A stretch of DNA of 64,000 nt from Clostridia bacterium (lineage in GTDB: Bacteria; Bacillota; Clostridia; Oscillospirales; CAG-272), in assembly GCA_017462485.1 (NCBI GenBank), contig JAFTRA010000035.1:168-64167 (forward strand), given 5' to 3'. The stretch's first letter is position 1. Every line of letters begins with the position of its first letter. This document shows positions 41,548-56,448 of the stretch, in pieces. The translations under genes and the position numbers were made by a program. The notes beneath the pieces are model-generated. The model saw only the letters and a program-made list of their open reading frames with translations, had not been told where the DNA came from and made no database searches.

Positions 41548-41582
41548 GCGGTCACGCTTTAAAGCGCGGCCGCATTTTCTTC
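41548..41582 (+). terminator. Second GC-rich hairpin with a U-rich tail (possible tandem terminator/insulator)
   Basis: GCGGTCACGC-tttaaa-GCGCGGCCGC (one mismatch, one G-U pair) followed by ATTTTCTTC. The apex contains the 12-bp palindrome CGCTTTAAAGCG. Confidence 0.4.
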
Positions 41583-41684
41583 AGAAAATGAGACTCTGAA
41601 TCCGTGGTTAAGCGCGCCTTTCGTTTGTGTAAAATGCATAAAATCGAATACTCGCGCAGCTCTTTTTTTGGAACTAGACTGTAC

Positions 41685-41712
41685 TTACAACCGCAAAATT
41701 TCCTGATATAAT
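41685..41712 (+). promoter_or_regulatory. Candidate sigma-A promoter (extended -10) for the phage-like cluster
   Basis: TTACAA (41685-90), a 16-nt spacer, then TGaTATAAT (41704-12). It would give a ~155-nt leader before the TTG start at 41873. Confidence 0.45.
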
Positions 41713-41872: not shown

Positions 41873-42211
41873 TTGAAGAAAGGAAAAAAATACACCGGGG
41901 ATTTGCCAAGACAGCTATATCTGTTTTTCACAAGCTCTGTTAAGGACGGTGAAGCACCCAGCTTCTCAAAATTCGCAAGAAGCATCGGTGTAACGCTCGA
42001 GGAGCTTGAGAGCTACAGAAAGTATAAGACGTTCGAGAGGTCGTGGCGCGACTGCATTGAAATCAGAAGGGATTACCTTACAGACTCCGCATTGACACGG
42101 CGCTATGACCCGTCATTCGTCAAATTCATTCTCTCAAGCGAGTTCGGCATAGGAGCGGAAGCTCCCGAGGACAACAGCATTTCGGTATGTATTAAGGTAG
42201 ATGATTCATGA
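41873..42211 (+). CDS. terS: Phage terminase small subunit
   Basis: TTG start 6 nt after AGGAGG. HTH-like PSFSKFARSIGVTLEELESY and a C-terminal DPSFVKFILSSEFG typical of TerS. ATGA overlap with terL. Confidence 0.7.
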   Translation: MKKGKKYTGDLPRQLYLFFTSSVKDGEAPSFSKFARSIGVTLEELESYRKYKTFERSWRDCIEIRRDYLTDSALTRRYDPSFVKFILSSEFGIGAEAPEDNSISVCIKVDDS

Positions 42212-43572
42212 ATATAGACCTGACAGTTACAAAAAAACAGAAGCTGTTTCTTGACGCTACGGAATCCGAGGTCCTCTTCGGCGGCGCCGCCGGAGGCGGA
42301 AAATCCTACGGTCAGATGGTTGACGCTTTCGTATTCGCTTTAAAATACCCGGGCTCAAAGCAGCTTATTTTAAGACGTACCTTTGCCGAGCTTGACAAGT
42401 CCTTGATAAGAACCGGGCTTGCTCTTTACCCAAGGGATATATTTTCCTTTAACTCATCTTCCCACACGGGAAAATTCAAAAACGGCTCCTGCATTGATTT
42501 CGGATACTGCGCAACCGAAAACGATGTTTATCAGTATCAAAGCGCTGAGTACGACTGCATTCGCTTCGACGAGCTCACGCATTTTACAGAAGCGCAGTAC
42601 GTTTATCTCATCTCAAGGGTAAGAGGCGCTAACTCTTATCCAAAGCAAATTAAATCCTCAACCAACCCCGGCGGCGTCGGGCACGGGTGGGTAAAGGCCA
42701 GATTCGTTGACCCGAGTCCACCGAAGACACGCTTTATCGGAGATGACGGAATGGAGAGAATTTTTATTCCCTCGCTCCTTGATGATAATTCGTTTCTTAT
42801 GAAGGGCGACCCGAGATACAAGGAACGCCTGCTCGCCCTGCCCGACAGAGAACGGCGCGCTCTTCTTTACGGTGACTGGAACATTTTTGACGGTCAGTAT
42901 TTTACCGAATTCAACGTAAACGAGCACGTTTGCGCACCGTTTGAGATTCCTCGCAGCTGGAGAAAATACCGCGCCATAGACTACGGGCTTGATAGACTCG
43001 TTTGCCTTTGGATTGCGGTAGCTCCGGACGGCAAGGCTTACGTTTACCGTGAATATTGCGAGTCCAATCTCCCGATAGGCGACAGCGCAAAGGCTATCAC
43101 GGAAAGAACTCCCGCCTGTGAGGAAATATACGCGACTCTCGCTCCGCCCGACCTTTTTTCAAGAAGTCAGGAGACAGGCAAAACCAAGGCGGCTATTTTT
43201 GCGGAGCACGGCGTCACGTTCACCAAAACCTCGAACGACAGAGAAACCGGTTGGCTTGCGATAAAGGAGCTTCTTATCGACAGAGGCGGCGGCACGGGGC
43301 TTAAGATATTCTCATTCTGCACAGAGCTTATCAAATGCCTCCCCGCCCTTACGGTAGATAAGCTTCGCCCGTCTGACTGCTCAACAGAGCCTCACGAAAT
43401 CACGCACGCCCCCGACGCTCTTCGTGGCTTTGCCATATTTTACGCAAGGCCAAGGGAGGAAGAAAAAGCTGTCGTTCGGACGAGGTGGTCGCGTGATATG
43501 TGGGAGGATTACTATGCCGCTGATGAGAAGGACAAAAAATATCTAAAACTCAAATACGGAGAACCACTTTGA
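42208..43572 (+). CDS. terL: Phage terminase large subunit
   Basis: Walker A GGAAGGGKS, Walker B YDCIRFDELTHF, and RNase-H-like nuclease Asp residues (AIDYGLD, HAPDALR). Confidence 0.92.
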   Translation: MNIDLTVTKKQKLFLDATESEVLFGGAAGGGKSYGQMVDAFVFALKYPGSKQLILRRTFAELDKSLIRTGLALYPRDIFSFNSSSHTGKFKNGSCIDFGYCATENDVYQYQSAEYDCIRFDELTHFTEAQYVYLISRVRGANSYPKQIKSSTNPGGVGHGWVKARFVDPSPPKTRFIGDDGMERIFIPSLLDDNSFLMKGDPRYKERLLALPDRERRALLYGDWNIFDGQYFTEFNVNEHVCAPFEIPRSWRKYRAIDYGLDRLVCLWIAVAPDGKAYVYREYCESNLPIGDSAKAITERTPACEEIYATLAPPDLFSRSQETGKTKAAIFAEHGVTFTKTSNDRETGWLAIKELLIDRGGGTGLKIFSFCTELIKCLPALTVDKLRPSDCSTEPHEITHAPDALRGFAIFYARPREEEKAVVRTRWSRDMWEDYYAADEKDKKYLKLKYGEPL

Positions 43573-45302
43573 AAACAGAAAAGAAAAACGGCGCAGAAAG
43601 ACTTGCGTTTTTCCGCGCTCTATATGAAAGCGCAAAGCATGCGTATTCCGATATTCTCGACGAGTTTGATAAAAACATGGCACAGTACCGAGGCTCGCTT
43701 GATATAGACGGTGGCAAGGAAAAGGCCATAACCGTGCGCAATATTACCTACGAAATAGTAGAAAGTCAGGTATCCTCGGATATTCCTCAGCCTAAGGTTG
43801 ATTCCGCTACGTACAGCGAAGAAAAAACGAGAGCCGCTCATGCGGTAGAAACGCTTTGCCGCTCTTTAAGGGACCGCCTTAACTTTGAGGAAATGAACGA
43901 TATCGACGAGCGCTACACCTATATATACGGTGGAAGCGTCTGGTTCGTTGAATGGGACAGCACTGCTGATTTCGGCGACGTCACGGGCGGTGTAAGAGTA
44001 CACTGCATATCCCCGAAGGACTTCGTTCCGCAGCCTAACGTATATCATATCTCTGATATGGAATACTGCTTCTTGCGTTTTATCACCACCAGAGCGGAAT
44101 TATCCCGCAAGTACGGTGTGAAGGATACAGACACCTATCTTGCCGATTTTGAAACCTCGTCGGAATACTTCGACGACGGAGATACCGTATCTGTAATTCT
44201 CTGCTTCTACCGAGGTGACGACGGAAACATAGGAGAATTCACTTTTTCAGGCGAGCTTATCCTCTCCGATATAGAAAATTACTATAAAAGGAAAACAAAA
44301 GTTTGCAAAAACTGTGGTAACGTGCCTGATAAGTGCTTGTGCGAGGGTAAAAAAAGCTTCATTACATGCGACGTCGATTTCGAGGACGTAAATGACAAAT
44401 CAAGCGGAAGAGCTATAAAAAAAGTTCCCTATTATACCCCGAAGTCATTTCCCTTGGTAATACGCAAAAACACCTCGAGTGAAAAGAGTCTTTTCGGTCA
44501 ATCGGACTGCAAATACATAAGACCCGAGCAGCAGGCTATAAACAAAATTGAATCGAGAATACTCCAAAAGCTTCTTCGCGCGGGAGTAACTCCCATAGTT
44601 CCGGAGGACGCAAGTATTACCCTTAACAATTCCGTCTTCGGTCAGATAATAAAGATGAAGCCCGGTGAGAGCATGGCGCAATACGGAAAGGTTGACACGA
44701 CCCCCGATATTTCGCAGGATATTGCTGAGGCGGAGCGCCTTTATGAGCATTCGAAGAGAATTCTCGGTATATCCGACGCATATCAGGGAATCGGTGAATT
44801 CGCAAATGAATCCGGCGTAGCAAGACAGCTTCGAATAGCGCAGGCAAGCGGACGTCTTGAATCGAAAAAGAAAATGAAGCACACGGCATATGCCGCACTC
44901 GACAGACTTATATTCGAGCATTATCTGGCGTTTGCCGACGAGCCGAGAAAAATGCGCTATAAGGACGCTTACGGCAAGCTTCATAACGCTATATTCAACA
45001 GGTATGATTTTCTCTTTTTTGACACGGGTACGCTTTCTTTCAGATACGACGACTCGTATATGTTCTCGGTTGACCTCAACGGAGGCTCGGAATATCAGAG
45101 AGAGGCTCTTTGGGAAAGAAATCTCGAGAATCTCAAATCGGGCACGCTTGGAGACCCCACTTTACCAACTACCCTGCTTCGCTATTGGCAATGTCAGGAG
45201 CGCGCACATTATCCCTACGCACGAGAAAACGTTGAATATTTTTCCGAGCTTATAGAAAAGGAGGAGATACCGTATGCCAACGAATCCGGCACTGAAATAT
45301 AA
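43569..45302 (+). CDS. Phage portal protein
   Basis: 577 aa immediately after terL with a TTGA overlap. Size, position and N-terminal features fit a portal. It contains an unusual CxxC-x6-CxC insert. Confidence 0.75.
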   Translation: MKTEKKNGAERLAFFRALYESAKHAYSDILDEFDKNMAQYRGSLDIDGGKEKAITVRNITYEIVESQVSSDIPQPKVDSATYSEEKTRAAHAVETLCRSLRDRLNFEEMNDIDERYTYIYGGSVWFVEWDSTADFGDVTGGVRVHCISPKDFVPQPNVYHISDMEYCFLRFITTRAELSRKYGVKDTDTYLADFETSSEYFDDGDTVSVILCFYRGDDGNIGEFTFSGELILSDIENYYKRKTKVCKNCGNVPDKCLCEGKKSFITCDVDFEDVNDKSSGRAIKKVPYYTPKSFPLVIRKNTSSEKSLFGQSDCKYIRPEQQAINKIESRILQKLLRAGVTPIVPEDASITLNNSVFGQIIKMKPGESMAQYGKVDTTPDISQDIAEAERLYEHSKRILGISDAYQGIGEFANESGVARQLRIAQASGRLESKKKMKHTAYAALDRLIFEHYLAFADEPRKMRYKDAYGKLHNAIFNRYDFLFFDTGTLSFRYDDSYMFSVDLNGGSEYQREALWERNLENLKSGTLGDPTLPTTLLRYWQCQERAHYPYARENVEYFSELIEKEEIPYANESGTEI

Positions 45303-45984
45303 AGAAAAGCTCAAGGAAAACGCCAAGATGAGCTACGACACCTACATCGCGGATAACGACAATCTCGGCGAGGTGAAATATCGTGACAAGGTAAGGGAGC
45401 TTAACACGGACAAGAAGATTTCGGATACGAATTACGGCTCTCTTTCCGACTCGCTTGCCACTGCGGGACTCTCCGGCTCGGGATACGAGGATTACCTCAA
45501 AACGCAGACGGAAAAGACCTACCTTAAACAGCTTAACGCCGCTATAGGCGACCTTAAAAGAGACGAATACAAAAACACCTCTGGGTATCAAAAGTATCTA
45601 TCGAGCTTCGCCTCTCTGCAAAGCAAAATATCCGAGAGCGTAATAGATTCGATAGCCGAGAGCGGAAGCTTTGATTTTGATGCCGCCTACAAAAAGGCGC
45701 TTGATGCCGGAATTTCCGAAGACCTTGCCTTCCATACGGCAGCGCGAGGTACGGCTCTGGCAAGAAAAGCCGCTGTGGAAAACGCTATCACCTTTGCCAA
45801 GCTCAACGGTCTTTCGCCTCTCAGAGCGAAAAAATACGCCGAGGGGCTCGGACTCGAGGATATATACGCAGAGGAGGTTTACGATGCCATTTCAACCTTT
45901 AATATGTTTGAAAAGGATTACTTCGCCTCTATGACCTCCGACGGATATTACGAATACATAATGTCCCAGTCTAAAAACAATTAA
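45274..45984 (+). CDS. Phage-cluster protein, unknown function (helical; possible minor head/morphogenesis protein)
   Basis: AAGGAGGAG RBS 8 nt before ATG 45274, inside the last 29 nt of the portal gene. No recognisable motif. Confidence 0.6.
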   Translation: MPTNPALKYKEKLKENAKMSYDTYIADNDNLGEVKYRDKVRELNTDKKISDTNYGSLSDSLATAGLSGSGYEDYLKTQTEKTYLKQLNAAIGDLKRDEYKNTSGYQKYLSSFASLQSKISESVIDSIAESGSFDFDAAYKKALDAGISEDLAFHTAARGTALARKAAVENAITFAKLNGLSPLRAKKYAEGLGLEDIYAEEVYDAISTFNMFEKDYFASMTSDGYYEYIMSQSKNN

Positions 45985-45997
45985 GAAAGGAACTTCC

Positions 45998-46126
45998 ATG
46001 AAAGAAAAGAAATACTCAAATTACGCTACCAACAAGGGCGGCAGAATAGAAAGCCCCAAGGGTAAAACCCAAAACGACCCCCGTTCCGTTAAGCGCGAGG
46101 GTAACGATTTAAGAATTAAAAAGTAA
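45998..46126 (+). CDS. Possible 42-aa basic protein (below the ORF-track size cutoff)
   Basis: ATG 45998 follows AGAAAGGAA. It translates to MKEKKYSNYATNKGGRIESPKGKTQNDPRSVKREGNDLRIKK and fills the otherwise empty gap between two cluster genes. Confidence 0.4.
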   Translation: MKEKKYSNYATNKGGRIESPKGKTQNDPRSVKREGNDLRIKK

Positions 46127-46141
46127 AGGAAACGTATTACT

Positions 46142-46627
46142 ATGTCGGAATTAGAAATAAACAAAGAGCTTGACGCCGAGAGTGAAAAAGCGGCGGACAA
46201 TGCCGAAGAGACAAAGTCAACGGAAAACGAAAATATAAAAAATGAAGAGCCTGAGGCGATAGAAGCCACAAGCGAAGAAAAGCCCCCCGAGACTACCGAT
46301 TACGAGGTGCTTGCAAGAGAAGATATGAGAGAGCTTATAGCTATGTTCCCTCACCTTGCCGGTAAGACGAGCGTAGCGGAGCTTGAAAACCCCTTGAGAT
46401 ATGCGGCGCTTCGAGACCTCGGACTTTCACCGAGGGAGGCATATCTTGCGACGAGCGCGCCCATACACAGATACGATAACAGAAGTCATCTTTCGGGCGC
46501 TGTTCCAAGACGGGCAGGGTCGGCTTCCGATATGCTCGGAGCGGCAGAGCTCGCCTCTGCGAGAGAGCTTTTTGCGGATCTTTCCGACCGTGAAATACAA
46601 AAGCTCTACAAAAAAGTTTCAAAATAA
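46142..46627 (+). CDS. Putative capsid scaffolding protein
   Basis: 161 aa with a highly acidic N-terminal third, located between the portal and capsid genes. AAAGGAAA RBS. Confidence 0.55.
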   Translation: MSELEINKELDAESEKAADNAEETKSTENENIKNEEPEAIEATSEEKPPETTDYEVLAREDMRELIAMFPHLAGKTSVAELENPLRYAALRDLGLSPREAYLATSAPIHRYDNRSHLSGAVPRRAGSASDMLGAAELASARELFADLSDREIQKLYKKVSK

Positions 46628-46640
46628 GAAAGGATAATCA

Positions 46641-47045
46641 ATGTTTAAGCTTATCAAAATCATCAACTCGGGCGTTAACGTACCCGAATTCACAAAGCTT
46701 GAGAAGCCCTCTTCTCTCACAGTAAAGATGGGTACCGCTCTCGTCGTAAACGGAGGTCTTGCCGAGGTTTGCCCCGACGGAACAACTCCCACTCATATCG
46801 TCGCCGAAGCTCCCAAGGAAAACGCCGAAGAGGTGGTTTGCTACGAGGTAAACGGCAATATGCGCTTCGAGACCACCGTAAACTCCGTCCCCACCGAGCT
46901 TAAGGTAGGCAACAGAGTTTCGCTCGGCTTTGACAGCGACGGCTGCGCGGTATGTGTAGGCGCTTACAACGCAAGCGGCGTTGCAACTATCGTTGACCTC
47001 CTCGGCGCAAAGAACATCGGTGACAAGGTAACCGTAAAATTTTAA
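46641..47045 (+). CDS. Putative head decoration/cement-type protein (DUF2190-like position)
   Basis: 134-aa beta-rich protein directly upstream of the major capsid gene. Assigned from position and size only. Confidence 0.4.
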   Translation: MFKLIKIINSGVNVPEFTKLEKPSSLTVKMGTALVVNGGLAEVCPDGTTPTHIVAEAPKENAEEVVCYEVNGNMRFETTVNSVPTELKVGNRVSLGFDSDGCAVCVGAYNASGVATIVDLLGAKNIGDKVTVKF

Positions 47046-47063
47046 TAAAGGAAAGGAATTCTT

Positions 47064-48119
47064 ATGATAATTTATTCTAAATCTTCGGGTCTTGCCGACA
47101 GTGCTATCGGTAAGCTCGAAACACCTATCAAAATGGTAATTGAGCACGAAAGCGATATGCAGACCAAAAAGGGCGGTATCTGCGACTGGCTCTTCAACGT
47201 TGAAAGAAGCGGCAAGTTCGGCGAGACCATCGTCGGTCAGAACGAATTCGACGTATTCCGTGCGGCGCCTGAGGGTAGCGGAGCGGAAAACGATACCATC
47301 TCGGAAACCTACAGAAAGTTTATTGAGCATATCCAGTTTATGAAGGAGTTCACCATTACCGCAGAAATGATGGAGGACGCAAACTACGGAGTTGCGCAGG
47401 ACGCAAAGCGCAGAGCAGAAAACTTCACCCGCGCTTACTACAAGACTATGCACAAAATCTGCGAATACGCTCTTGCCTCCGGTACTCTCCTTTCGGGCAG
47501 CTTCGCAAAGGCAAAGCTTGACCTTACCGCTCCCGACGGTCTCCCCCTCTTCTCCGCTTATCACAGCTATGGCATAGGCGACAGCAAGGGCACACAGTCC
47601 AATTATTTCTTTGGTGATATATTCGGCACGGGTACGGATGGCAGACGCGCAAGCACTGCCGTCTTTGAGGAAGCGCTTGGCGAGCTCGCTGTTAAGATAC
47701 GTAATATGAAGGACGAAAACGGCGAGGTTCTCGGCTACACCGCAGATACCATAATTCTCCCCGGCAACCGTCCTCTTGCTGAGGCGGTAGCTAAAAAGGT
47801 TTGCGGCTCCGAGGGCGCTCTCGGTAACGGCTACAACGATATAAACCTTCAGTACGGTAACTGGAATATCGTCGTTATGCCCAACTGGCAGACCGAGGAC
47901 GACAGAGTTATGATAATGTCCTCCGAGGCAAACAAGAACCTCTCAGGTAATATGTTCTTCAACCGTGTTCCTCTCACCGTAAGCAACTGGGTGGATCATC
48001 ACACGGGTAACTACATATGGGGTGGCAGATGCCGTTTCGGTGTAGGATTTGGCACGTACAAGCACATTCTTCTTGCGGTTGACTCCGCAAGCTCGGTTGC
48101 GGGAGCATCGGCTCTTTAA
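47064..48119 (+). CDS. Major capsid protein
   Basis: 351 aa following scaffold-like and decoration-like genes. Strong AAAGGAAAGGAA RBS, and a terminator hairpin follows. Assigned from position, size and composition. Confidence 0.7.
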   Translation: MIIYSKSSGLADSAIGKLETPIKMVIEHESDMQTKKGGICDWLFNVERSGKFGETIVGQNEFDVFRAAPEGSGAENDTISETYRKFIEHIQFMKEFTITAEMMEDANYGVAQDAKRRAENFTRAYYKTMHKICEYALASGTLLSGSFAKAKLDLTAPDGLPLFSAYHSYGIGDSKGTQSNYFFGDIFGTGTDGRRASTAVFEEALGELAVKIRNMKDENGEVLGYTADTIILPGNRPLAEAVAKKVCGSEGALGNGYNDINLQYGNWNIVVMPNWQTEDDRVMIMSSEANKNLSGNMFFNRVPLTVSNWVDHHTGNYIWGGRCRFGVGFGTYKHILLAVDSASSVAGASAL

Positions 48120-48259
48120 TCCAAAGCTCTGCGTACCGAAAGTCAATCTAACATAAGTGTTAGATATGGTAAGAGTAATAATCGAGGCTTTAATATAAGC
48201 TTTCCAATCTCGTATTATTCTCTTGCCCGACATAAGATAACGCTTTTACTGAATTTCTT

Positions 48260-48299
48260 GGCTGTTTCAAGCTTTAATAATCTTGGAACAGCCTTTTTC
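48260..48299 (+). terminator. Internal intrinsic terminator after the major capsid gene
   Basis: GGCTGTTTCAAG-(10 nt)-CTTGGAACAGCC (12 bp, one G-U pair) followed by TTTTTC. Confidence 0.65.
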
Positions 48300-48326
48300 A
48301 AAAATGCCACAAAGAAAGGACAAAAA

Positions 48327-49169
48327 ATGACACTGAATCAACTTTTATCCGAGGTTTACGCTCTCGGCTTTGAGGACAGCTTTGAAATCAATGACGTTTT
48401 TATATTCTCGGCAAACAGAGCTTTGCGTCTTATTTTCCTTGAGCTTGCGTCGCCAAGGGTGGCAAAAATCCATGTAAGACGCGAAGACGTTTGCTATCGG
48501 CTTGATAGATATACGCACACACCAGGAACAAGCTTTGAGATAAAGACAGATTCCGCAAGGGCATACAGCTTCCGAGCCTATGGCAACGGAGAATACACGA
48601 TAATTGACAACAATGGTAGTCAAATCAAGCGTTTTACAGGAGCTGTCAGTGAATCAAGAGGAGTCTTTTCGGGCGATGGAAAAATAGTTTTCACAGGTGA
48701 TTTTTCCTATACCGTAACAGACCTTTCGCTCTTCTCTTCCCTTAAGGACGGCAACCTATCCTCAATTCCGATAGTATCGGACACTATACAGATAGACCTC
48801 AAAAAATACATAGGTGATCTTCTCTGCGCGACGAATGCTCCGACAGATGCGTCAGGTAAAGCTATCCCCGGTGCTGCTGTGCTTGGAGATACGCTTATTT
48901 TACCCGAAGACTTTTCGGGTGAGGTTACCGTTTATTATAAGCCCTCTCCAAATACAATTGGAGTTGACGACCTCAATTATTCCATTGATATGCCAAAACT
49001 TTTCGAGCCCTTACTTCCTCTTCTGACAGCGGCTTATTTATGGCTTGACGACGACGAGGAAAAGTCGCAATACTATATGAATATTTACAAGGACGAGGCG
49101 GCAAAGATAAGACTTACACTTATGAGAGCTCATAACTCAAGCTATACCGACACTACGGGGTGGGCGTGA
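48327..49169 (+). CDS. Phage-cluster structural protein, unknown function (possible adaptor/connector)
   Basis: ATG 48327 follows GAAAGGA; the ORF is open from 48258, but that stretch overlaps the terminator hairpin. 280 aa. Confidence 0.6.
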   Translation: MTLNQLLSEVYALGFEDSFEINDVFIFSANRALRLIFLELASPRVAKIHVRREDVCYRLDRYTHTPGTSFEIKTDSARAYSFRAYGNGEYTIIDNNGSQIKRFTGAVSESRGVFSGDGKIVFTGDFSYTVTDLSLFSSLKDGNLSSIPIVSDTIQIDLKKYIGDLLCATNAPTDASGKAIPGAAVLGDTLILPEDFSGEVTVYYKPSPNTIGVDDLNYSIDMPKLFEPLLPLLTAAYLWLDDDEEKSQYYMNIYKDEAAKIRLTLMRAHNSSYTDTTGWA

Positions 49170-51874
49170 TGAGTTATCTTAACAAAAACGGCTACAAAAG
49201 CCGCTCGGAATACAGCGTAGTTTACGAGGGTATGAGGGGTGTGGATTTCAGAGAAAGCGGCTCGGGGATTTCAAGAAACCGATTTGCCTATCTTGAAAAT
49301 ATGTACCGCGATTACGACGGCGACGGCGCGGGAGTTATAGAAAGTATTCCAGGATATCGAAAAATATACGATTTCGGAGAAAGAATAAACGGTCTTTACT
49401 CCTACAAAAGCTCACACGGATACGACGTTATGGTTGCGCACGCGGGAAGCGCTCTTCACGAATTTTACGTTGACGACAGAGACGCTGTTTTTTCAATCGT
49501 TAAAACAGAGGGCATCAAGGACAGAGCGAGCGACTCGTTTATTTCAAGAGATTCGCTTTTCGTGCTTGACGGAGAAAACATTTTCAAGCTTTCCGATAAA
49601 TACAGGGGAAAGGTAAACGACAGCGGCGGCGGAATTTACGTACCTACCACCTATTACAACGGTGAGGAATACGAGCAAAGAAATCTTCTTACGAGAAAAT
49701 TTTACGAAACGTACAATATCGGCTCGTGCGAATCGCTTGCCTTTGCGACGCCGTCGCTTAAATACGCTATAACAGACAGCGAGGCTCTTTTATGCAAGGT
49801 CACGGGCATAAGTGACGACAGCTCCGAGCTTTATATTCCCTCTCGCGTGCTCATAGGCGACAAATATTACTCGGTGAAGCATATTGAAGCCGGAGCGTTC
49901 AAGGAAAACAAAAGCATTACCAAGTGCTATATAGCTAACGGAATATCGACGATAGGCGCAATGGCATTTCATAGCTGTACCTCTCTTAAAAAGGTGATAC
50001 TTCCCGACAGCGTAACCTTAATAGACGCAGCCTGCTTCTCGGGATGCCTTTTACTTAACACTCTGCATTTGGGACGAGGACTTCGCAGAATAGAGACAAG
50101 CGCAACCAACAGTTGTACGGACCTCAAAGAAATAACATATTCGGGAAGCGAAAGCGATTTTCAGTCTGTAGAAAACACCGAAACCCTTGGCGAAACACCT
50201 ATAATTTACGACACTCAAATTACCGAAATCACGCTTGGAATAAAGATTTTCAGCCCTTGCGTTTCCATAGAAGAGGTAACGGCAGGCGGTAGTACGTGTG
50301 AATTTTCGGTAGTGATGAAGGGAGAGCTTTGCGACACGCTTAAAATCCACTTTGACGACAAATCTCTGTACGAAGGAAAAGACGTTAAGCTGCTCGGAAC
50401 TCTTTCGGAAAATCCCGAGCATTACACAGGCGTTCACACCGGCTTTATCACCTCTAATCATATCGAAGGAAAGAGCATCGCGGCGGCAATTCTCGGCTGC
50501 ACGGTGGCTGAAAGCTTTGACGGAAGAATATTCCTCACGGGAAACCCAAGTTATCCCGGCTTCACCTTCTTTTCAGCATTCGACACCACGGGAGAAAACA
50601 ATCCGCTTTATTACGGAGAGCTTAATTATTTCAAGGACGGAGTAGGCAGATTTGCGAACGTAGCGTTGCTTGCCACGTCGGACTCTATTGCCGTATTCAA
50701 GGAAAGAGACGACGGCGGCGGAAGTATCTATTATCACACACCCAGCGCCACGGGAGAAAATCTTATCCCTAAAATCTATCCCGTATCGTACGCGCATAAC
50801 GGATTTTCGGCAAAGGGGCGCGCTATATCTTTCTTCGATGACCCTGTGTTTATAAGCGAGAGAGGTCTTTCGGCACTTTCCAAAAAGGCGATAAACCTCG
50901 AAAGAAGCATCGCAACCAGGTCAACCAACATAAACCCGAAGCTTCTGACGGAAAACCTTTCGGAAATAAAGCTTGCGGTATGGCGAGGCTATCTCGTTCT
51001 TCTCTCGGGTGAGAGAATTTATCTTGCCGATTCGAGAGACGTATTCGTTTCAGAAAAGGGCGATATGGAGTACGAGTGGTACTTTATATCCGGAATCGGC
51101 TCGAGAAAGAACGCAAAAAATGCGCACAGATACTCCTCGGTAGCTCACACTGGTTATGCCGTTCACGAGAATGCCGACGGTATAGCGGAGGGCGAGGTTC
51201 TTGGATGCTCTAACGGAGATTATATTATAAGATACGTTATCGAAAACGGCATAAAGTACGAGGTTTATCAAACCGAAGAGCTTATTGGAGGTGAGTTCTA
51301 TCCGCCGACACATCTGTGCGCCGTAGGAGACCTTTTGTTCTTCGCTACCTCTGCCGGAGAAATTTACGTCTTCAACAGCGACAAGCGAGGTATAGCTCCT
51401 CCCACGGTTTCTCAAAATCCAAGCTTTGACAAGGAGGAATACGAGGACGCATATAAAAGACAGCTACACCCGTATTACTACTCCTTTGCCGGACACGCTC
51501 CGCGTTACGCCCTGCAAACCAAGCGCGACGACTGCTCTATCCCCCACCTTACAAAAAGCACCGTCAAAAACTCACTGACCTTAAAATGCAGGGCTATTGC
51601 CTCGGGAAAAATAAGGTGCGAGGTTGGTACGGACAACGAGGGTTACAGCGAAATATGCGCTTTCCCAGGTCACGATATGCTCTTCGCCGATATGGATTTT
51701 ACGTCTGTTTCGATGAGCACGGAGGACATATACACCGTACCCGTGCACGAAAAAAGCAAGAACTGGATAGAAAAGCAGATAACGATTTATTCTGACGATT
51801 ACGGCTCTCCGTTCGGGCTTTATACGATAGCCTACCGATTCTTCGTTAAGGGCAAAATCAAGAAAAACAGATAA
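49169..51874 (+). CDS. Large phage-cluster structural protein with an embedded BspA-type LRR module
   Basis: About 900 aa. TGATG junction with the upstream gene. The segment around 49820-50180 encodes LRR units (HIEAGAFKENKSITKCYIANGISTIGAMAFHSCTSLKKVILPDSVTLIDAACFSGC). Confidence 0.7.
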   Translation: MSYLNKNGYKSRSEYSVVYEGMRGVDFRESGSGISRNRFAYLENMYRDYDGDGAGVIESIPGYRKIYDFGERINGLYSYKSSHGYDVMVAHAGSALHEFYVDDRDAVFSIVKTEGIKDRASDSFISRDSLFVLDGENIFKLSDKYRGKVNDSGGGIYVPTTYYNGEEYEQRNLLTRKFYETYNIGSCESLAFATPSLKYAITDSEALLCKVTGISDDSSELYIPSRVLIGDKYYSVKHIEAGAFKENKSITKCYIANGISTIGAMAFHSCTSLKKVILPDSVTLIDAACFSGCLLLNTLHLGRGLRRIETSATNSCTDLKEITYSGSESDFQSVENTETLGETPIIYDTQITEITLGIKIFSPCVSIEEVTAGGSTCEFSVVMKGELCDTLKIHFDDKSLYEGKDVKLLGTLSENPEHYTGVHTGFITSNHIEGKSIAAAILGCTVAESFDGRIFLTGNPSYPGFTFFSAFDTTGENNPLYYGELNYFKDGVGRFANVALLATSDSIAVFKERDDGGGSIYYHTPSATGENLIPKIYPVSYAHNGFSAKGRAISFFDDPVFISERGLSALSKKAINLERSIATRSTNINPKLLTENLSEIKLAVWRGYLVLLSGERIYLADSRDVFVSEKGDMEYEWYFISGIGSRKNAKNAHRYSSVAHTGYAVHENADGIAEGEVLGCSNGDYIIRYVIENGIKYEVYQTEELIGGEFYPPTHLCAVGDLLFFATSAGEIYVFNSDKRGIAPPTVSQNPSFDKEEYEDAYKRQLHPYYYSFAGHAPRYALQTKRDDCSIPHLTKSTVKNSLTLKCRAIASGKIRCEVGTDNEGYSEICAFPGHDMLFADMDFTSVSMSTEDIYTVPVHEKSKNWIEKQITIYSDDYGSPFGLYTIAYRFFVKGKIKKNR

Positions 51875-51904
51875 GCGGAAATTTTAACGCTTGGAAAGGA
51901 AAAA

Positions 51905-52372
51905 ATGAACACAACTAAAATTTTAGAATCAGAAATCGCCGATATGAAAATTTCATCTCTTCCCTCAAGGCCCACCGCCCCCACGGCGTTTGGCGGAAAG
52001 GGATATACCGCAAACGAAATGAAAGCGGCGTTTGACAAGCTCCCCTTGTACATAATTGAGAGATTCAACATGCTTCTTTCGGACATCGAAGGCTCGGGAG
52101 AGGGCTCGCTTGCCGCAGCCATTCCCACAAAAATAGCCGATGGGCATACCTTAAGTCAGCTTTTTCTCGATATATGCGACGGTGTCTTTGCCTCGTATCT
52201 TTCACTGGGCGATGAAACGCTTGAGGAAATGAAGTCAAGACTCCTTGATGAAAAGGAGAGCTTCGAGGAGCGTATCGCATACTGCCTCACTCATATCGCG
52301 GACAGCGTTATAGACGGCTCGTCGCCGTCATCGAGAAATACTGAAACCGGGGAGGTGTTGAAGATTGATTAA
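51905..52372 (+). CDS. Phage-cluster protein, fibre-associated N-terminal motif
   Basis: ISSLPSRPTAPTAFGGKGYTANEMKAAFDKLP resembles a motif I recall from N-termini of prophage tail-fibre proteins. This is memory-based only. Confidence 0.5.
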   Translation: MNTTKILESEIADMKISSLPSRPTAPTAFGGKGYTANEMKAAFDKLPLYIIERFNMLLSDIEGSGEGSLAAAIPTKIADGHTLSQLFLDICDGVFASYLSLGDETLEEMKSRLLDEKESFEERIAYCLTHIADSVIDGSSPSSRNTETGEVLKID

Positions 52373-52832
52373 AAGTATTCGTCACCTATCCGGAACCGAG
52401 TCGGAATGGGACACTCATAATCTCGTTGTGCCTGACGGAGAAATCTCAATTCTCAAAACCAAGGGCGGAAACAAAAAAATCAAGATAGGAAACGGCACGG
52501 ACAGATTTTCCGAGCTACCCTCACTTACAGGCGACGCTGTAAAAACCGATGCGATAGCAATAACGCTTATGCACGGGAAAAGCTACCGCTTGGGCGTTGC
52601 CGCTGCGCTTGAGCTTTCCTTCCCCGACGTCATCGATGACGACTATTACTCTGAGATAAGCTTCGATTCCGGCACTGACGCCACCGAATTTTCGGTTTCG
52701 GGCTCGCTTCGTCTTACGGGCGATGACGTTGCCGATGAAGAGCTTTTGCCTAAGACCAACTATCATTACACCGTATTTATATGGTATGACGGAGACTTCC
52801 AAGGAGTCGTAAGAGGTTTGCCTAATGATTAA
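52365..52832 (+). CDS. Phage-cluster protein with a tail-fibre/hyaluronidase-type N-terminal domain (Mtd_N-like)
   Basis: TTG start after GGGGAGGTG. GTESEWDTHNLVVPDGEISILKT...KIKIGNGTDRFSELP matches the R-G-T-x-x-W...GE...K-I-GDG...W..LP pattern of fibre N-domains. Confidence 0.6.
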   Translation: MIKSIRHLSGTESEWDTHNLVVPDGEISILKTKGGNKKIKIGNGTDRFSELPSLTGDAVKTDAIAITLMHGKSYRLGVAAALELSFPDVIDDDYYSEISFDSGTDATEFSVSGSLRLTGDDVADEELLPKTNYHYTVFIWYDGDFQGVVRGLPND

Positions 52833-53958
52833 AGAAAAAGCCGGACTTTTTAAAAAAACACTCGTATGGCGCCATTTATCAAAGGGTATAGACGCGATAA
52901 GCTTTCCTGCCGAAGTAAAAAAAAGCAATATCGAACACTTCAAGCTTTACGGAAAAACCGTAATTTCGGACAGCGGCTCTATGGAAAGCGTCGGGGATTA
53001 CGACTCCGAGAGCGAAAAATATCTTATGAAGCTTCATATTCACGGTAAAAACTATATGAGCGGAGATGCATTCGCAGAGATTTTTACCGCCAGCGGAGCT
53101 TCAAAAACAAACACGATCGAGAGCGGGGGAAGCTTTCTGACAAAGCCGACGATATCAACAAACGGTACGGTTGTCATCAACAGAAGCCATATTCGTTTCA
53201 AGGAAAAAACCGCCTATACCATAGCCACTCAAATCAGAATGCTACACAGCGGACCGACTAGGGACTTCAGACTTAGGTTCGACTATTCCGACGGAACCAG
53301 CTATTTCCCTAAAATTGAGAGCAATACTATATTGTTAAAAGGATGCGTTTCAAGCGACCCCGAGAAAACCTTGGTTTCGCTTTCCTCTTACACGGAGGCG
53401 GATTTAAACATTCGCTTTATATTGAAGTGGTTTGGCATCTACGAGGGGACTCACACCTCTTTTAACGACACGTACGAGGCGTACAGCGGAACGTGGGTAG
53501 ATGTAAAGTTGAATGCCCCCCTGATGAGTATAGGATATACATCCGACGAGCTTGATATGCTTACGGGCCAGGTCACAAGAAAAATCGCAACTCAAAGGAT
53601 AGACTCAAGCGTTCAGTGCGCCGCAAGCTCAACCGAGGGCGTTTACATAATAATGCTTGACCATCCTATGCGCCCCGGAAGCAAATTCATCTCACCTTAT
53701 CCCGATTTCGATGCGGGTGAGGAAACCGGCATACGCGTATCCGAGGACGGCAGAATGATATATCTCAAGCTCCCGGAGAGCGTCACGATTGACAATTTAC
53801 TTGAATACCTCGAAAACAATCCCTTCGATATAACCTACGTATTAAAGACTCCTTTGACAGAAACCGTTTCTTTACCTACTCTTATTCTTAATAACGAAAG
53901 CGTTATAGAGATATTCACAAACGTAGCTCCGAGGAAAGTAGTAGCGGTATATGTATAA
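52825..53958 (+). CDS. Putative receptor-binding / tail-fibre distal protein
   Basis: 377 aa, beta-rich. HGKNYMSGDAF and the C-terminal YVLKTPLTETVSLPTLILNN...VAVY resemble jelly-roll fibre tips seen in Firmicutes prophages. This is memory-based only. Confidence 0.5.
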   Translation: MIKEKAGLFKKTLVWRHLSKGIDAISFPAEVKKSNIEHFKLYGKTVISDSGSMESVGDYDSESEKYLMKLHIHGKNYMSGDAFAEIFTASGASKTNTIESGGSFLTKPTISTNGTVVINRSHIRFKEKTAYTIATQIRMLHSGPTRDFRLRFDYSDGTSYFPKIESNTILLKGCVSSDPEKTLVSLSSYTEADLNIRFILKWFGIYEGTHTSFNDTYEAYSGTWVDVKLNAPLMSIGYTSDELDMLTGQVTRKIATQRIDSSVQCAASSTEGVYIIMLDHPMRPGSKFISPYPDFDAGEETGIRVSEDGRMIYLKLPESVTIDNLLEYLENNPFDITYVLKTPLTETVSLPTLILNNESVIEIFTNVAPRKVVAVYV

Positions 53959-54024
53959 TCAAAGGCTTTATTTTTCGAAAAATCAAACTTTTGTTCTTTG
54001 TTTTTTCGAAGAAAGGACACAGAA

Positions 54025-54447
54025 ATGATAACATTAGTTTACAAATTTATTGAATCAAAGGATTTTAACGTTCCGTCAATGTTCGTTCTTTTTGATATAA
54101 ACGAAGACGGCGGAGAAAAAATTAAAATTAGTGCTTCTGAGAAAAAATGCGAATATATTCTTATAGGCAACAATAAATACCGAATGAAGAATGGCGAGGC
54201 TGAAATCGAGCTTTCGGATATTGAGGACGGAGAGCTGAACCCGGAAATAGCCGTAGGAACGAAGAGATATCTTGCCTCTCCGTTTTCCAAAAGCGGCTAT
54301 GAGATTAAAAGATGCAACCTTTCTGCCGACACCGAGGGAGTAATGAGCAAGCTTTTGTATAGCATCTCTTTATCTCTTAATTCGGCTACCGAAAGAATCG
54401 CATATCTCGAAGAAAAAATCAAACCAAAGGATTTATTCAAATTCTAA
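54025..54447 (+). CDS. Phage-cluster protein, unknown function
   Basis: ATG 54025 follows GAAAGGA; the ORF is open from 53998. 140 aa. Confidence 0.55.
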   Translation: MITLVYKFIESKDFNVPSMFVLFDINEDGGEKIKISASEKKCEYILIGNNKYRMKNGEAEIELSDIEDGELNPEIAVGTKRYLASPFSKSGYEIKRCNLSADTEGVMSKLLYSISLSLNSATERIAYLEEKIKPKDLFKF

Positions 54448-54465
54448 AAAGAAAGGAAAAACAAC

Positions 54466-55179
54466 TTGAAACGTAAAAACTTGACACGTATATGGGCTAT
54501 ATGCCTGATTTTCGGAATTTTATGCTGCCTTTTCACTCCGATTTTTGCTTATGCCGAAAGCGGCTCAGACACTATCGAAAATGCCGCTGTGCAAGCTGAC
54601 GAAAGCGAAGACGGTGAAGCTTTGGCTGACAAAAGCACAGATAATAGCGAAAGCTTATCCGATAATGCTTCCGACACCGATAGCGGCGAGGACAAAACGT
54701 TTTTCGGATCGCTTTATAATGCTGTAGAGGAAAACGTATCCGAAATTTTATCTCTCCTTGCATTTCTCGGCTCGGTTATCATAATGCTTTGCTACAAACG
54801 CGGATTCCTACCGCTTCTAAGCGACGGAATAAAGGCTCTTATCAGCGGAGTTAAAAGCATTGGTGAGAAAACCGAAAGCTTAAACTTAACCTCGGAGGAA
54901 TTTAACGGCAAAATTAAAGAACGGATAGACACGCTCGAGGCTGTTCTCGAAAAAACCGACGGTATCTTGAAGTCAATCGAAGAAAAGCTTGACGAGGCGG
55001 AAAGCACCAAAAGCGAACGTGAACAGCTAAAGACGGTGCTTTCTTGCGAAATTGATATGCTCTATGAAGTTTTCATGGCAGCTTCTCTCCCCCAATATCT
55101 CAAGGATAACGTTGGAGAAAAAATTGCCGAGATGAAGCGATTGACCGTAGGAGCTGACAGTCATGACAGAGAAAATTAA
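54466..55179 (+). CDS. Bitopic membrane protein: signal peptide, acidic ectodomain, TM helix, coiled-coil tail
   Basis: TTG start after GAAAGGAAA. Signal-like IWAICLIFGILCCLFTPIFAYA, a Asp/Glu/Ser-rich stretch, the TM helix LSLLAFLGSVIIMLCY, then a heptad-like C-terminus. Confidence 0.6.
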   Translation: MKRKNLTRIWAICLIFGILCCLFTPIFAYAESGSDTIENAAVQADESEDGEALADKSTDNSESLSDNASDTDSGEDKTFFGSLYNAVEENVSEILSLLAFLGSVIIMLCYKRGFLPLLSDGIKALISGVKSIGEKTESLNLTSEEFNGKIKERIDTLEAVLEKTDGILKSIEEKLDEAESTKSEREQLKTVLSCEIDMLYEVFMAASLPQYLKDNVGEKIAEMKRLTVGADSHDREN

Positions 55180-55522
55180 GGCATACTTACTGATTTTCTT
55201 AAGCACTTTTATTTCGGTAGCTCCGGCTGTTATCGCAACGGTAAGCTATTTCCCCCTATGGAAAGAGAGGGGCTCAGCGGCAGTTCTTTCGGGATTTACA
55301 CTTGCGCTTCTGATAATAGCCGCCGCTCCTTTTTTAAAGTTCATAAAGCGCATATTATCCTCGCCTTCTATATTCGTTACGTGGTTTATAATATTCGTTT
55401 TATTCCTACTTTTAAAAAGCATAGCCGATGAAATGGTAGTTATCTCATTCGTCGGTTTCGTATCAAACGCCATAGGAGCGCTCATTTACAAGCTTGCCGA
55501 AAGGAAATTAAAGAAAGCATGA
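55163..55522 (+). CDS. Small 4-TM membrane protein (holin-like size and topology)
   Basis: 119 aa with four hydrophobic helices and a basic C-terminus (ERKLKKA). It overlaps both neighbours. Confidence 0.55.
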   Translation: MTEKIKAYLLIFLSTFISVAPAVIATVSYFPLWKERGSAAVLSGFTLALLIIAAAPFLKFIKRILSSPSIFVTWFIIFVLFLLLKSIADEMVVISFVGFVSNAIGALIYKLAERKLKKA

Positions 55523-56352
55523 AAGACTTCAGCCAAATTGAAGATTCAATACTTGACTCCGGAGAGATGGTCAAAAAGGCAGGGCGCGCGCTCATTGAAA
55601 ATATGGGCAAGATAATCGCTCTTGCGGTTTCTCTTATTATGATTGCGGTAACGTTTACCGACATCAGCTTTTCCTCCGTTTTCACCGAGAGCTTTGCCTC
55701 CTCACTTCTCTTACTGCTCACCTCCTCCTATATAATCTATTTTTCGCTTGAAGACGCAGGAGAAAAATGCGCTGAGAACACCGAGGAATACAAAAAGGCA
55801 AAGGAGAGATACGACAGCCTGAGGCAAAAAGTTTCGGGAAACGATATAGCCGATTTAAGAGTTTTCTGCCTTGGATATTCCGAGCGAGAGCTTGAATACC
55901 GAAAAAGCAACGCTCTGATACGAGAGGGACTATCCTCTGAGGACATGAAAGCTTTTTGCTCGGGAAAGACATTTGATAAGCGCACGGGCAGAAAGCTTAA
56001 GCGAATAGCAAAAATCAAGCCCGTCAGGCTGACTCCGAGAATGCTTCTCTCAAAGGGCAAGGCAGGGCGCTCGGGTGAGCTTGAAAACCCCGAAAGCAAA
56101 AAACTGCTTTCGCTCATAATAAAGCTCATTCCCTCAACAGTATGTATGACGGTGACGGTTTCGGTTATGTTGAGCGCAAAGGAGGGTTTAAGCTCCGCAG
56201 ACGTGCTAAACGGCATACTCAAGCTTTCGGCACTCCCTATGATAGGCTTTAAGGGATACTCCGCAGGCTATTCATACGCAAAGCACTCTCTTGCCTCGTG
56301 GTTTGAAACTAAGGCTGATATAATAGAGGATTTCTTGAAAAGCAAGGGATAA
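55519..56352 (+). CDS. Membrane protein (2+2 TM helices flanking a charged cytosolic domain), unknown function
   Basis: ATGA overlap with the upstream ORF. 277 aa. It is the last gene before the strong terminator. Confidence 0.6.
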   Translation: MKDFSQIEDSILDSGEMVKKAGRALIENMGKIIALAVSLIMIAVTFTDISFSSVFTESFASSLLLLLTSSYIIYFSLEDAGEKCAENTEEYKKAKERYDSLRQKVSGNDIADLRVFCLGYSERELEYRKSNALIREGLSSEDMKAFCSGKTFDKRTGRKLKRIAKIKPVRLTPRMLLSKGKAGRSGELENPESKKLLSLIIKLIPSTVCMTVTVSVMLSAKEGLSSADVLNGILKLSALPMIGFKGYSAGYSYAKHSLASWFETKADIIEDFLKSKG

Positions 56353-56408
56353 TCGAAACAAAAAAAAGAGCTACCGTACTTTAAATCGGGGGTTCTCTTA
56401 ACGTGTGA

Positions 56409-56448
56409 GGCAGAGGTACTGAATAAAACGGTACCTCTGCCTTTTTGT
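56409..56448 (+). terminator. Strong intrinsic terminator ending the phage-like cluster
   Basis: GGCAGAGGTAC-(11 nt)-GTACCTCTGCC perfect 11-bp stem followed by TTTTTGT. Confidence 0.85.

Follow-up and report, generated by a model that had tools for sequence, protein, structure and literature searches.

Is a chromosomal set of phage head and tail genes, with no genes beside it that could propagate it, a prophage remnant, a mobile element of unusual form, or a possession of its host? This question is raised by a 14.5-kb region (positions 41873-56352, + strand) in a 64,000-nucleotide (nt) stretch of the genome of a Clostridia bacterium (GCA_017462485.1, contig JAFTRA010000035.1), hereafter the window. 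Here 17 co-directional open reading frames (ORFs) follow one another, as a preliminary description made from the letters and their ORFs had noted, and the ORF list and a second, independent public gene call on an identical contig give the same 17 products. That description proposed a domesticated particle system resembling a gene transfer agent (GTA). We consider it probable that the locus is a host-domesticated, podovirus-like, GTA-like particle operon. Domestication is supported by what can be read from the sequence, namely gene content, conservation, the ratio of nonsynonymous to synonymous substitution rates (dN/dS), co-divergence with the neighbouring host gene ABC-F, and no mobility genes, whereas the strict name GTA, which would entail particles, random host DNA packed in pieces below the length of the locus, and transfer, goes beyond that evidence. 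Relatives of the locus were sought in one genome per GTDB species; 191 genomes were positive, and 80 loci from 80 different assemblies were fetched.

A podovirus-type virion operon behind a conserved promoter

The 17 genes are listed below with the evidence for each; product lengths in amino acids (aa) agree with the independent gene call, and dN/dS values here and later were obtained by the Nei-Gojobori method from close genome pairs.

g01, 41873..42211, +: small terminase subunit TerS, 112 aa (phrog_3064, E 2.6e-7; weak GP3_package match)
g02, 42208..43572, +: large terminase TerL, ATPase and nuclease, 454 aa (Terminase_3, Terminase_6N; phrog_979, E 3.6e-46)
g03, 43569..45302, +: portal of P22/SU10 type, 577 aa (PF16510 P22_portal, 29.1 bits with a cut-off of 26.1; phrog_156, E 1.3e-34)
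g04, 45274..45984, +: conserved orphan with repeated Gly/Leu/Ala motifs, 236 aa (46-53 orthologues)
g05, 45998..46126, +: basic protein, 42 aa (positional conservation; called independently)
g06, 46142..46627, +: acidic scaffold-like protein, 161 aa (by position and composition only; no family match)
g07, 46641..47045, +: conserved head-module protein, 134 aa, directly 5' of the major capsid protein (MCP) gene (phrog_24113, E 3.6e-11)
g08, 47064..48119, +: MCP with HK97 fold, 351 aa (AlphaFold2 (AF2) model and Foldseek)
g09, 48327..49169, +: head-to-tail adaptor, 280 aa from ATG 48327, longest ORF from 48258 (PF24175 SU10_adaptor)
g10, 49169..51874, +: tail nozzle with an inserted BspA-type leucine-rich repeat (LRR) domain, 901 aa (AF2 and Foldseek; LRR_5, E 1.6e-17)
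g11, 51905..52372, +: conserved orphan, tail- or fibre-associated by position, 155 aa (64 orthologues; dN/dS 0.16)
g12, 52365..52832, +: tail-fibre N-terminal domain, 155 aa (phrog_6049 tail fibre)
g13, 52825..53958, +: fast-evolving orphan, 377 aa (only in the closest 10-14 loci, 20-40% identity)
g14, 54025..54447, +: fast-evolving orphan, 140 aa (no family match)
g15, 54481..55179, +: membrane protein with N-terminal transmembrane (TM) segment, acidic linker, second TM segment and C-terminal coiled coil, 232 aa (hydropathy)
g16, 55163..55522, +: small polytopic membrane protein with 3-4 TM segments and a basic C-terminus, 119 aa (hydropathy)
g17, 55519..56352, +: membrane protein with an N-terminal TM pair, basic soluble middle and C-terminal TM segment, 277 aa (hydropathy)

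The identities first given to TerS, TerL, portal and MCP are all confirmed by these matches and by the MCP model. In a pooled scan of 13 TerS sequences (the window protein and 12 orthologues), phrog_3064 was matched by 13/13 and the P22 family GP3_package by 9/13; TerS has a dN/dS of 0.17, and gave no usable alignment with the TerS of phage PK1, which bears a helix-turn-helix, or with the 89-aa TerS of a related cluster in Gemmiger described below. The statement that TerL retains its Walker and nuclease residues holds well beyond the window, since none of Walker A (G25-S33), Walker B (R119-F126) and the nuclease aspartates D258, D315 and D403 varies among 24 sequences, Gemmiger included. The terminase matches families that include P22-type headful packagers. 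The window MCP itself gave only weak family matches, and no capsid model in NCBIfam at E<=1, while its relatives carry PF25209 Phage_capsid_4 and also PF10124 (Mu gpT-like); its AF2 model, with a predicted local distance difference test score (pLDDT) of 77.2, was matched by Foldseek to the capsids of HK97, SU10, T4 and the agent RcGTA at E ~1e-10.

Between portal and MCP lie four smaller genes. g04, possibly an internal or assembly protein, had no Pfam, PHROG or PDB-sequence match except to designed repeat proteins. The small basic ORF of the preliminary description is a real gene, g05, with 64 tblastn matches at E<0.01 at the same position in related loci, the best 25 listed being 48-76% identical. 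g06 is intact in 79/79 loci (dN/dS 0.24). g07 had been called decoration-like, a label we could not support: its family, phrog_24113, is one of unknown function (10 matches in a pooled scan holding 13 g07 sequences), and one pooled-scan sequence matched a head-decoration family. A g07 homologue occupies the same position in the virome contig L082 (32% over 137 aa), and ORFs of similar size stand there in the Gemmiger cluster and in the ~43-kb phages discussed below.

The tail genes give the particle its predicted type. PF24175 SU10_adaptor was matched by 16/25 g09 sequences (best E 7e-8). The AF2 model of g10, built on a 60-sequence alignment, reached a pLDDT of 88.9 and a predicted template modelling score of 0.82, and its best PDB neighbours in Foldseek were all podovirus nozzles, those of cyanophage A4 (2e-19) and SU10 (1e-16), followed by T7 gp12 (4e-16) and P22 gp10 (1e-10). 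With portal, adaptor and nozzle the operon has the virion layout of a T7/SU10/P22-like podovirus, and Pfam and PHROG scans of the 17 ORFs, including pooled orthologues, found no tape measure, tube, sheath or baseplate family. The earlier guess of a podovirus-like particle is thus borne out by the adaptor profile and the nozzle model. Five genes after MCP had been described as structural or fibre-like, which stands for the adaptor g09, the nozzle g10 and the fibre N-terminus g12 (7 matches to phrog_6049 in a pooled scan containing 12 g12 sequences), while g11, g13 and g14 are orphans with no Pfam or PHROG family match. g13, a candidate receptor-binding protein, had no PDB match by sequence, and the profiles of g09, g13 and g17 gave designed-repeat or chance matches only when searched against PDB.

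The nozzle carries its BspA-type LRR insert at residues ~223-350, and PF13306 was found in 120/120 g10 homologues of this clade among the matches listed; the nozzles of the Gemmiger cluster and of the ~43-kb phages are 617-640 aa long, with no LRR family match recorded. At two loci (L001, L020), large BspA-LRR surface proteins directly adjoin the cluster. The g09 orthologues (L001-L080) fall into two length classes, one of ~280-300 aa as in the window and one of ~180-200 aa (23 loci); as the short form fits the size of the SU10 adaptor profile, the window protein carries an extra domain.

Hydropathy confirms that the operon ends with three membrane proteins. g15 shows weak Tropomyosin and Med9 coiled-coil matches and has 54-58 orthologues (dN/dS 0.20), and g16 and g17 are intact in 57/57 and 55/55 loci. 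No recognisable Pfam, PHROG or PDB-profile family was found for g15-g17; g16 is holin-like in form only and matched no holin family. Pooled Pfam and PHROG scans of 135 orphan-gene sequences found no holin, endolysin, protease, tape measure or ejection-protein family. The three proteins may be either holin-like release proteins, an option drawn from positional analogy with the lysis cassette of the Gemmiger cluster, or podovirus-type membrane-inserting ejection proteins.

The signals that set the operon apart from its neighbours are as follows.

41480..41511, +: intrinsic terminator of the upstream ABC-F gene, 13-bp stem and U-tract (-19.0 kcal/mol, z = -5.3)
41548..41590, +: second hairpin followed by a U-rich stretch, inside the 440-nt intergenic region (-19.4 kcal/mol, z = -4.6)
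41667..41712, +: conserved promoter, with TTTGGAA at 41667-41673, an extended -35-like TACTTAC(A) at 41682-41689, a 17-nt spacer and TG-n-TATAAT ending at 41712
56407..56448, +: strong intrinsic terminator closing the operon, 15-bp stem and U-tract (-26.8 kcal/mol, z = -6.5)

The two hairpins on the left and the strong terminator on the right, all proposed by eye, therefore fold as claimed. The promoter-like signal seen on the left has also proved to be conserved. It scores 10/12, with the TG element, and leaves a 5' untranslated region of ~155 nt. The motif [AT]ACTTAC with TATAAT 17 nt downstream lies upstream of TerS in 33/59 loci, with 0.03 expected per 470 nt, and occurs once in the window. 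Its consensus is ATACTTACA-N17-TATAAT, or more fully TTTGGAA-N9-(T)ATACTTAC(A)-N17-(TG)nTATAAT. The heptamer is invariant by construction, as the aligned sequences were chosen on it; the -10, which is often TG-extended, and the TTTGGAA element ~9 nt 5' of the heptamer were not selected for. Sequence 3' of the -10 does not align across loci. We read this as a predicted sigma-A-like promoter with a strongly conserved, non-consensus, extended -35, which suggests a candidate dedicated activator or sigma factor.

Within the operon the genes are closely packed, as described before, with overlaps of 4, 8, 10, 17 or 29 nt, otherwise gaps of 13-39 nt, and GGAGG-like ribosome-binding sites at the gene boundaries. 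The exception is the junction from MCP to g09, which measures 138 nt to the start of the longest ORF (48258) and 207 nt to ATG 48327, the start chosen from orthologue consensus and the independent gene call. The probable true starts are 48327 for g09, 49169 for g10, 54025 for g14 and 54481 for g15. No other intergenic space in the operon is as large as the 207-nt non-coding gap between the MCP stop and the g09 ATG (48120-48326, with GAAAGGA preceding the ATG), which may hold an attenuator or internal promoter that sets the ratio of head to tail expression. Base composition resembles that of the flanks, as had been judged by eye: the GC content of the cluster is 46.3% compared to 44.8% for the rest of the window, and relative synonymous codon usage correlates between cluster and flanking host genes (r = 0.91) about as it does between one half of the host genes and the other (0.93). 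The codon usage of the cluster is ameliorated and equal to that of the host.

Conservation, selection and host setting

Of the 80 fetched loci, 79 are labelled as metagenome-assembled genomes (MAGs) of uncultured Clostridia, Eubacteriales or Oscillospiraceae, most of them sampled from the gut or faeces of animals or humans; the sources of the clade include ruminants, cervids, yak and humans. MCP is 75-94% identical over these 80 species-level genomes. It has 1,727 homologous clusters at 90% identity, the best 120 all being >=81% identical, and its family comprises 326 representatives in a library of 1.84 billion proteins clustered at 50% identity. The gene order g01-g17 is kept in ~50 complete loci of 11.8-16.2 kb (median 14.4 kb). 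The portal is full-length in 63/63 ORFs clear of contig ends, MCP in 78/79 and the nozzle in 71/71; TerL is full-length in 61/63, one of the others being internally short and one cut by a contig end. Internally truncated core ORFs number two in total. The preliminary description had named frameshifted orthologues and patchy, strain-specific presence as marks of a truncated prophage; truncated orthologues are almost absent, and patchy presence is at odds with 191 species-level genomes and 80 loci from as many assemblies. One fetched locus, L019 (CAVEOF010000004.1), is labelled 'Coriobacteriaceae bacterium', and its MCP gene is 97% identical at the nucleotide level to that of L016, a Eubacteriales MAG; the probable cause is an error in binning or labelling the contig, not transfer to Actinomycetota.

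All genes of the cluster are under purifying selection, where neutral dN/dS had been the third such mark. The ratio is 0.045 for MCP, 0.065 for portal, 0.084 for TerL and 0.10-0.30 for all others, compared to 0.054 for ABC-F and 0.069 for the MFS transporter among the host neighbours, so that MCP is at least as constrained as the adjoining ABC-F. The synonymous divergence (dS) of the cluster genes follows that of ABC-F in the same genome pairs (0.14 versus 0.16, 0.35-0.46 versus 0.44, and 0.75 versus 0.80). For the 27 genomes in which ABC-F adjoins the cluster, pairwise identity correlates with that of ABC-F (Pearson 0.75 for TerL, 0.70 for MCP and 0.81 for portal), and MCP is more conserved than ABC-F in 99% of pairs. 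Conservation and co-divergence with ABC-F together mark out a set of genes belonging to the host, as opposed to a prophage or a remnant in decay.

The surroundings are those of a bacterial chromosome. On the left are YggS, LspA, RluD, an amino-acid ABC importer operon and ABC-F, with HisS, a radical-SAM protein and PcrA/UvrD further out; on the right are the MFS transporter, a 433-aa protein, Mfd and Pth. The preliminary naming of these host genes stands, except for the labels sepF and 'PrsA-like', for which no family match was obtained; the ORF called PrsA-like, which encodes the 433-aa protein (58024-59325, - strand), has no Pfam match at E<=1e-5 and no meaningful NCBIfam match. Family annotation of the window covered ~25.8-64 kb, and over this part the earlier remark that mobility, lysogeny and replication genes are missing holds. 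No integrase, recombinase, repressor, primase or Rep family was found in the 17 ORFs, in these annotated flanks or in 20 flank families annotated from other species; scans of the window gave no tRNA and no Rfam match. An att-like direct repeat bracketing the cluster was not found. Thus the two further arrangements that the preliminary description had linked to a recently truncated prophage, a cluster contiguous with integrase, lysogeny and replication modules and a cluster between att duplications, were seen neither in ~50 complete loci with the 20 flank families nor in the repeat search, respectively.

The left neighbour is ABC-F in 29-31 of ~60 loci and another gene elsewhere. The 20 annotated flank families of other species are all cellular, two of the 20 being without a family match, and include a DinG-type helicase, cysteine synthase, a sigma-70-family factor, DUF554, a MutS2-like protein, GroEL, UDP-GlcNAc 2-epimerase, a topoisomerase, oxidoreductases, a Na/Pi transporter, a DprA fragment and BspA-LRR surface proteins. 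The sigma-70-family factor (245-292 aa, with regions 2, 3 and 4) lies near the cluster in four divergent loci, directly right of g17 and on the same strand in L070 and L077, and in the left flank in L021 and L031. A short ORF with a DprA domain (DNA_processg_A) is the left neighbour in L040 and L075. These neighbours could be a coincidence, or a link to regulation or DNA uptake.

Phage relatives and known gene transfer agents

To place the locus among phages we compared it with INPHARED (50,697 phage records), where no close isolated phage was found: MCP matches were at most 28% identical, and the only portal matches were two human-faecal virome contigs marked as unverified. Among cultured phages Bacillus phage PK1 comes closest (TerL 42%, MCP 26% identical); it differs from the locus in being a complete phage, of 41 kb, with antirepressor, SSB and sigma-factor genes. 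The module portal-scaffold-MCP-adaptor-nozzle recurs at 25-31% identity in ~43-kb gut 'Caudoviricetes sp.' phages (L101, L102), which also have a 133-aa ORF at the g07 position. Like PK1, and in contrast to the locus, they are complete phages in which early, replication and regulatory genes are joined by a holin and an endolysin, the latter of M15 type in the ~43-kb phages; these gut phages also have another terminase (a Terminase_2 TerS and a 561-aa TerL).

Another distant relative is a sister cluster in Gemmiger spp. (L097-L099), which is likewise structural-only, ~12.4 kb long, bounded by host genes on both sides and free of an integrase.

GCA_016901715.1 JACJKT010000001.1, locus coordinates ~4878-17261: Gemmiger cluster

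Its order is TerS (89 aa), TerL (462), portal (608), four small or scaffold-type ORFs, MCP (334), SU10-type adaptor (198), nozzle (617), a fibre-like 398-aa protein, GH25 lysozyme, a 101-aa protein, Phage_holin_1 and a 246-aa protein. From TerS to the nozzle this is the order seen here, with TerL 52%, portal 32% and MCP 29% identical, and the two structural-only clusters share a terminase type lacking in the ~43-kb phages. They differ in that the Gemmiger cluster has no homologues of g11-g17, ends with the GH25 lysozyme and Phage_holin_1 where the locus has three membrane proteins, and has a nozzle with no recorded LRR match.

Fragments of such loci have been collected as viruses. The cluster of this clade is represented in IMG/VR by no more than 14 short pieces (4.5-21 kb), and one of these includes the ABC-F neighbour. 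Three INPHARED records of 7-11 kb from human faeces, MT836833.1 (L081), MT837280.1 (L082) and MT836592.1, are entitled 'UNVERIFIED: Bacteriophage sp.'; the first two hold fragments of the Gemmiger-type cluster, and the third was matched by TerL only (47%). Instead of phage genomes, all three probably represent loci of bacterial chromosomes, perhaps as host DNA that had been packaged. One IMG/VR entry stands apart (L090, IMGVR_UViG_3300031993_004062, 55% GC, 80-14133): its MCP is 75% identical and its remaining shared genes are 25-38% identical, a 1043-aa non-portal protein precedes the scaffold gene on the 5' side, and terminase and portal are absent from the 16 kb examined. It is either a rearranged cluster or a recombinant.

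The preliminary description knew of no GTA in this clostridial lineage, which is out of date. GTA-type packaging of discrete 4.6-8.9-kb fragments with even host coverage has been reported for gut Ruminococcaceae, Oscillospiraceae and Christensenellaceae, and a podovirus-like GTA of Faecalibacterium prausnitzii, FpGTA, has been validated by transmission electron microscopy, proteomics and packaged DNA of 8.4-8.9 kb (Borodovich et al., Nat Commun 2026, PMC12946183). FpGTA consists of a 10.5-kb operon (TerS with no obvious DNA-binding domain, TerL, portal, scaffold, MCP, adaptor, nozzle and others) and a 5.5-kb operon (fibre, receptor-binding protein, holin, endolysin), and has capsids of ~40 nm with ~9 kb of DNA (PMC12946183). 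A 2026 preprint adds a 14-kb candidate in Coprocola (Anaerotignaceae, murine gut), with small and large terminase and structural genes, and a separate 3.6-kb holin/endolysin cluster on the same contig (bioRxiv 10.64898/2026.07.08.737213).

The locus resembles FpGTA in being a chromosomal operon of a gut Clostridia host that has no integration or replication genes, in the order TerS-TerL-portal-scaffold-MCP-adaptor-nozzle and in the short tail of P22/T7 type; the last gene of FpGTA, a coiled-coil 'TolA-like' protein, recalls g15. The differences are several. The FpGTA MCP (RCH50849.1) is annotated as N4-gp56, whereas the MCP here has no NCBIfam capsid match and relatives of the Phage_capsid_4 and Mu gpT-like families; FpGTA has two operons, the second with an endolysin, whereas here the fibre-like genes g11-g14 lie within a single 14.5-kb operon, and neither the cluster nor its annotated flanks yielded an endolysin; and the LRR insertion in the nozzle is a feature of the locus. 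As far as can be tested, the locus lies outside the FpGTA family, set apart by the published annotation of FpGTA. FpGTA is also validated by experiment, whereas the locus is known from its genes. To judge from its description, the Coprocola candidate shares with the locus a length of ~14 kb, terminases and structural genes, no integration or replication genes and an origin in a gut Clostridia MAG, and differs in the separate holin/endolysin cluster. As far as sequence can tell, the locus would work like FpGTA and the Coprocola candidate. We found no paper that describes the cluster of this clade or that of Gemmiger. GTA-like packaging of 8.4-8.9 kb was seen in Gemmiger where no FpGTA homologue was found (PMC12946183), which makes the Gemmiger cluster a candidate for that packaging.

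With GTAs of the RcGTA type, found in Alphaproteobacteria, and with GTAs (viriforms) in general the locus shares a head-to-tail cluster in the core genome, the lack of int and rep genes, vertical inheritance, purifying selection and, as predicted, a host-embedded promoter. RcGTA is siphovirus-like, with tape measure and tube, and belongs to an unrelated lineage. Accessory loci and the regulators GafA and CtrA are known for RcGTA, whose TerS lacks a DNA-binding domain.

A predicted particle and the competing explanations

Taken together, three features of a GTA can be read from the genome: a chromosomal, phage-derived set of head, tail and terminase genes, the absence of self-propagation genes, and vertical inheritance under purifying selection. 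The source of the locus would have been a short-tailed phage of gut Clostridia, SU10/T7/P22-like in kind, of which the late (virion) module was retained; since the MCP family of the locus also occurs in the ~43-kb phages, the structural module is taken to come from a Clostridia podophage lineage. A single transcript would be driven by the conserved promoter 5' of TerS. The HK97-fold capsid would assemble on the portal with the assistance of scaffold-type helpers, TerS and TerL would fill it with DNA by headful packaging, and the adaptor would close the filled head before the LRR-displaying nozzle and the fibres are added. g15-g17 would then serve release from the producer, in a holin-like manner, or ejection of DNA into a recipient. 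As the locus lacks functions for replication, integration and excision, it has no means of amplifying or mobilising itself, and the packaged DNA should therefore be mostly host chromosome, which would make this a GTA-like particle of the same kind as the podovirus-like FpGTA.

Several points weigh against this proposal. The lineage consists entirely of uncultured MAGs, and particles, packaged DNA and transfer are predictions. Neither an endolysin nor a recognisable holin was found in the cluster or in the annotated part of the window, although GTAs often have their lysis functions at unlinked sites. Only about half of the loci share the genomic position, and a metagenome scan with ABC-F gave three close relatives, of which one has the cluster, one is on a contig too short to tell, and one, L103 (JAEIGA010024847.1), lacks it there: the synteny yggS-lspA-rluD-ABC-F is kept and ABC-F is 74% identical, and a gene for an AraC-family regulator (7166-8017) stands directly 3' of ABC-F in place of the cluster. 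The position of the cluster, or its presence, is therefore not universal. The annotated flank families are 20 of ~200, and on the right side the flanks from other species extend over just 1-4 kb. Finally, whether the locus is too large to package itself depends on the capacity of the capsid.

A domesticated particle need not deliver DNA. A PBSX- or bacteriocin-like particle, DNA-filled and short-tailed and with no productive DNA delivery, would be a device for killing or competition, for adhesion through the LRR nozzle or for release of extracellular DNA on lysis. All the evidence for domestication fits it equally; the nozzle bears a BspA-type LRR adhesion domain, no partners in DNA uptake or recombination were identified, and the authors of the FpGTA study leave the same non-transferring, PBSX-like role possible for FpGTA (PMC12946183). 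We nevertheless regard it as unlikely, as terminase, portal and capsid are the most constrained genes, which fits a role in which DNA packaging matters, and as the known killer particles (PBSX, tailocins) use contractile or long tails, whereas the tail here is of nozzle type and no sheath, tube, tape measure or baseplate family is present. Less likely still is a mobile element, be it a satellite, an island that forms capsids, or a prophage of unusual form in which the functions for integration and replication lie elsewhere, are very small or escape recognition. It would account for the differing host context between sub-lineages, for the close relative with no cluster beside ABC-F, for the several orphan ORFs (g04, g05, g11, g13, g14, g15-g17) and for the viral classification of cluster fragments by the IMG/VR pipelines. 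What speaks against it is the lack of any integrase, recombinase, primase or Rep family in the cluster or the 20 flank families, of att repeats and of a tRNA target; an integrated temperate prophage would differ further in having a repressor and a replication module. The 80 fetched loci come from 80 assemblies, dS and identity co-vary with the adjacent host gene, and codon usage is ameliorated. Capsid-forming phage-inducible chromosomal islands (PICIs) and such phage satellites carry an integrase, an alpA-type regulator, a rep/pri module and head genes, depend on a helper and have no tail genes, whereas the locus has its own adaptor, nozzle and fibres and neither int nor rep. Contigs, moreover, never end at the edges of the cluster as a phage genome would, unlike those of the true phage relatives, which do so and show a size peak at 20-50 kb with none longer.

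That only the late module is present, as is often the case in remnants, could also point to a functionless cryptic prophage in decay. This we hold to be very improbable: each gene is intact in ~50-79 species, dN/dS is 0.045-0.30, MCP exceeds the translation-associated ABC-F in conservation, and the promoter and translational coupling are conserved. The data on selection and conservation effectively refute this reading.

We thus return to the GTA-like operon, whose history can be extended in a tentative and, to us, somewhat doubtful way. As this cluster and the Gemmiger-type cluster share a terminase type (TerL 52%) absent from the ~43-kb phages, both may descend from one ancient domestication, which would have given rise to a large GTA superfamily of gut Clostridia with RcGTA-like breadth. 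In the branch studied here, the lysis cassette would have been replaced by the three membrane proteins, and the nozzle would have gained a host-type LRR adhesin as a receptor-binding device. If so, the replacement of lysozyme and holin implies a different mechanism of release or DNA ejection.

In summary, the locus is read as a domesticated, GTA-like particle system; as such it joins a recently established kind and is not a categorically new thing. Judged from its genes, it is a strong candidate that stands out by its breadth, tight constraint, conserved promoter and LRR-bearing nozzle. IMG/VR classes such loci as 'viral', and GenBank lists related ones as 'Bacteriophage sp.'; the 75-94% conserved MCP and the ATACTTACA-N17-TATAAT promoter would provide markers for their re-annotation. 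If the particles carry host DNA, a large uncultured clade of Clostridia from mammalian guts, of at least 191 species-level genomes, would own a dedicated, vertically inherited device for DNA exchange. The result obtained with FpGTA, which makes GTA-type packaging a major route by which DNA is mobilised in the gut, would then extend to a new and much more species-rich family, and some of the bacterial DNA in viromes would be explained.

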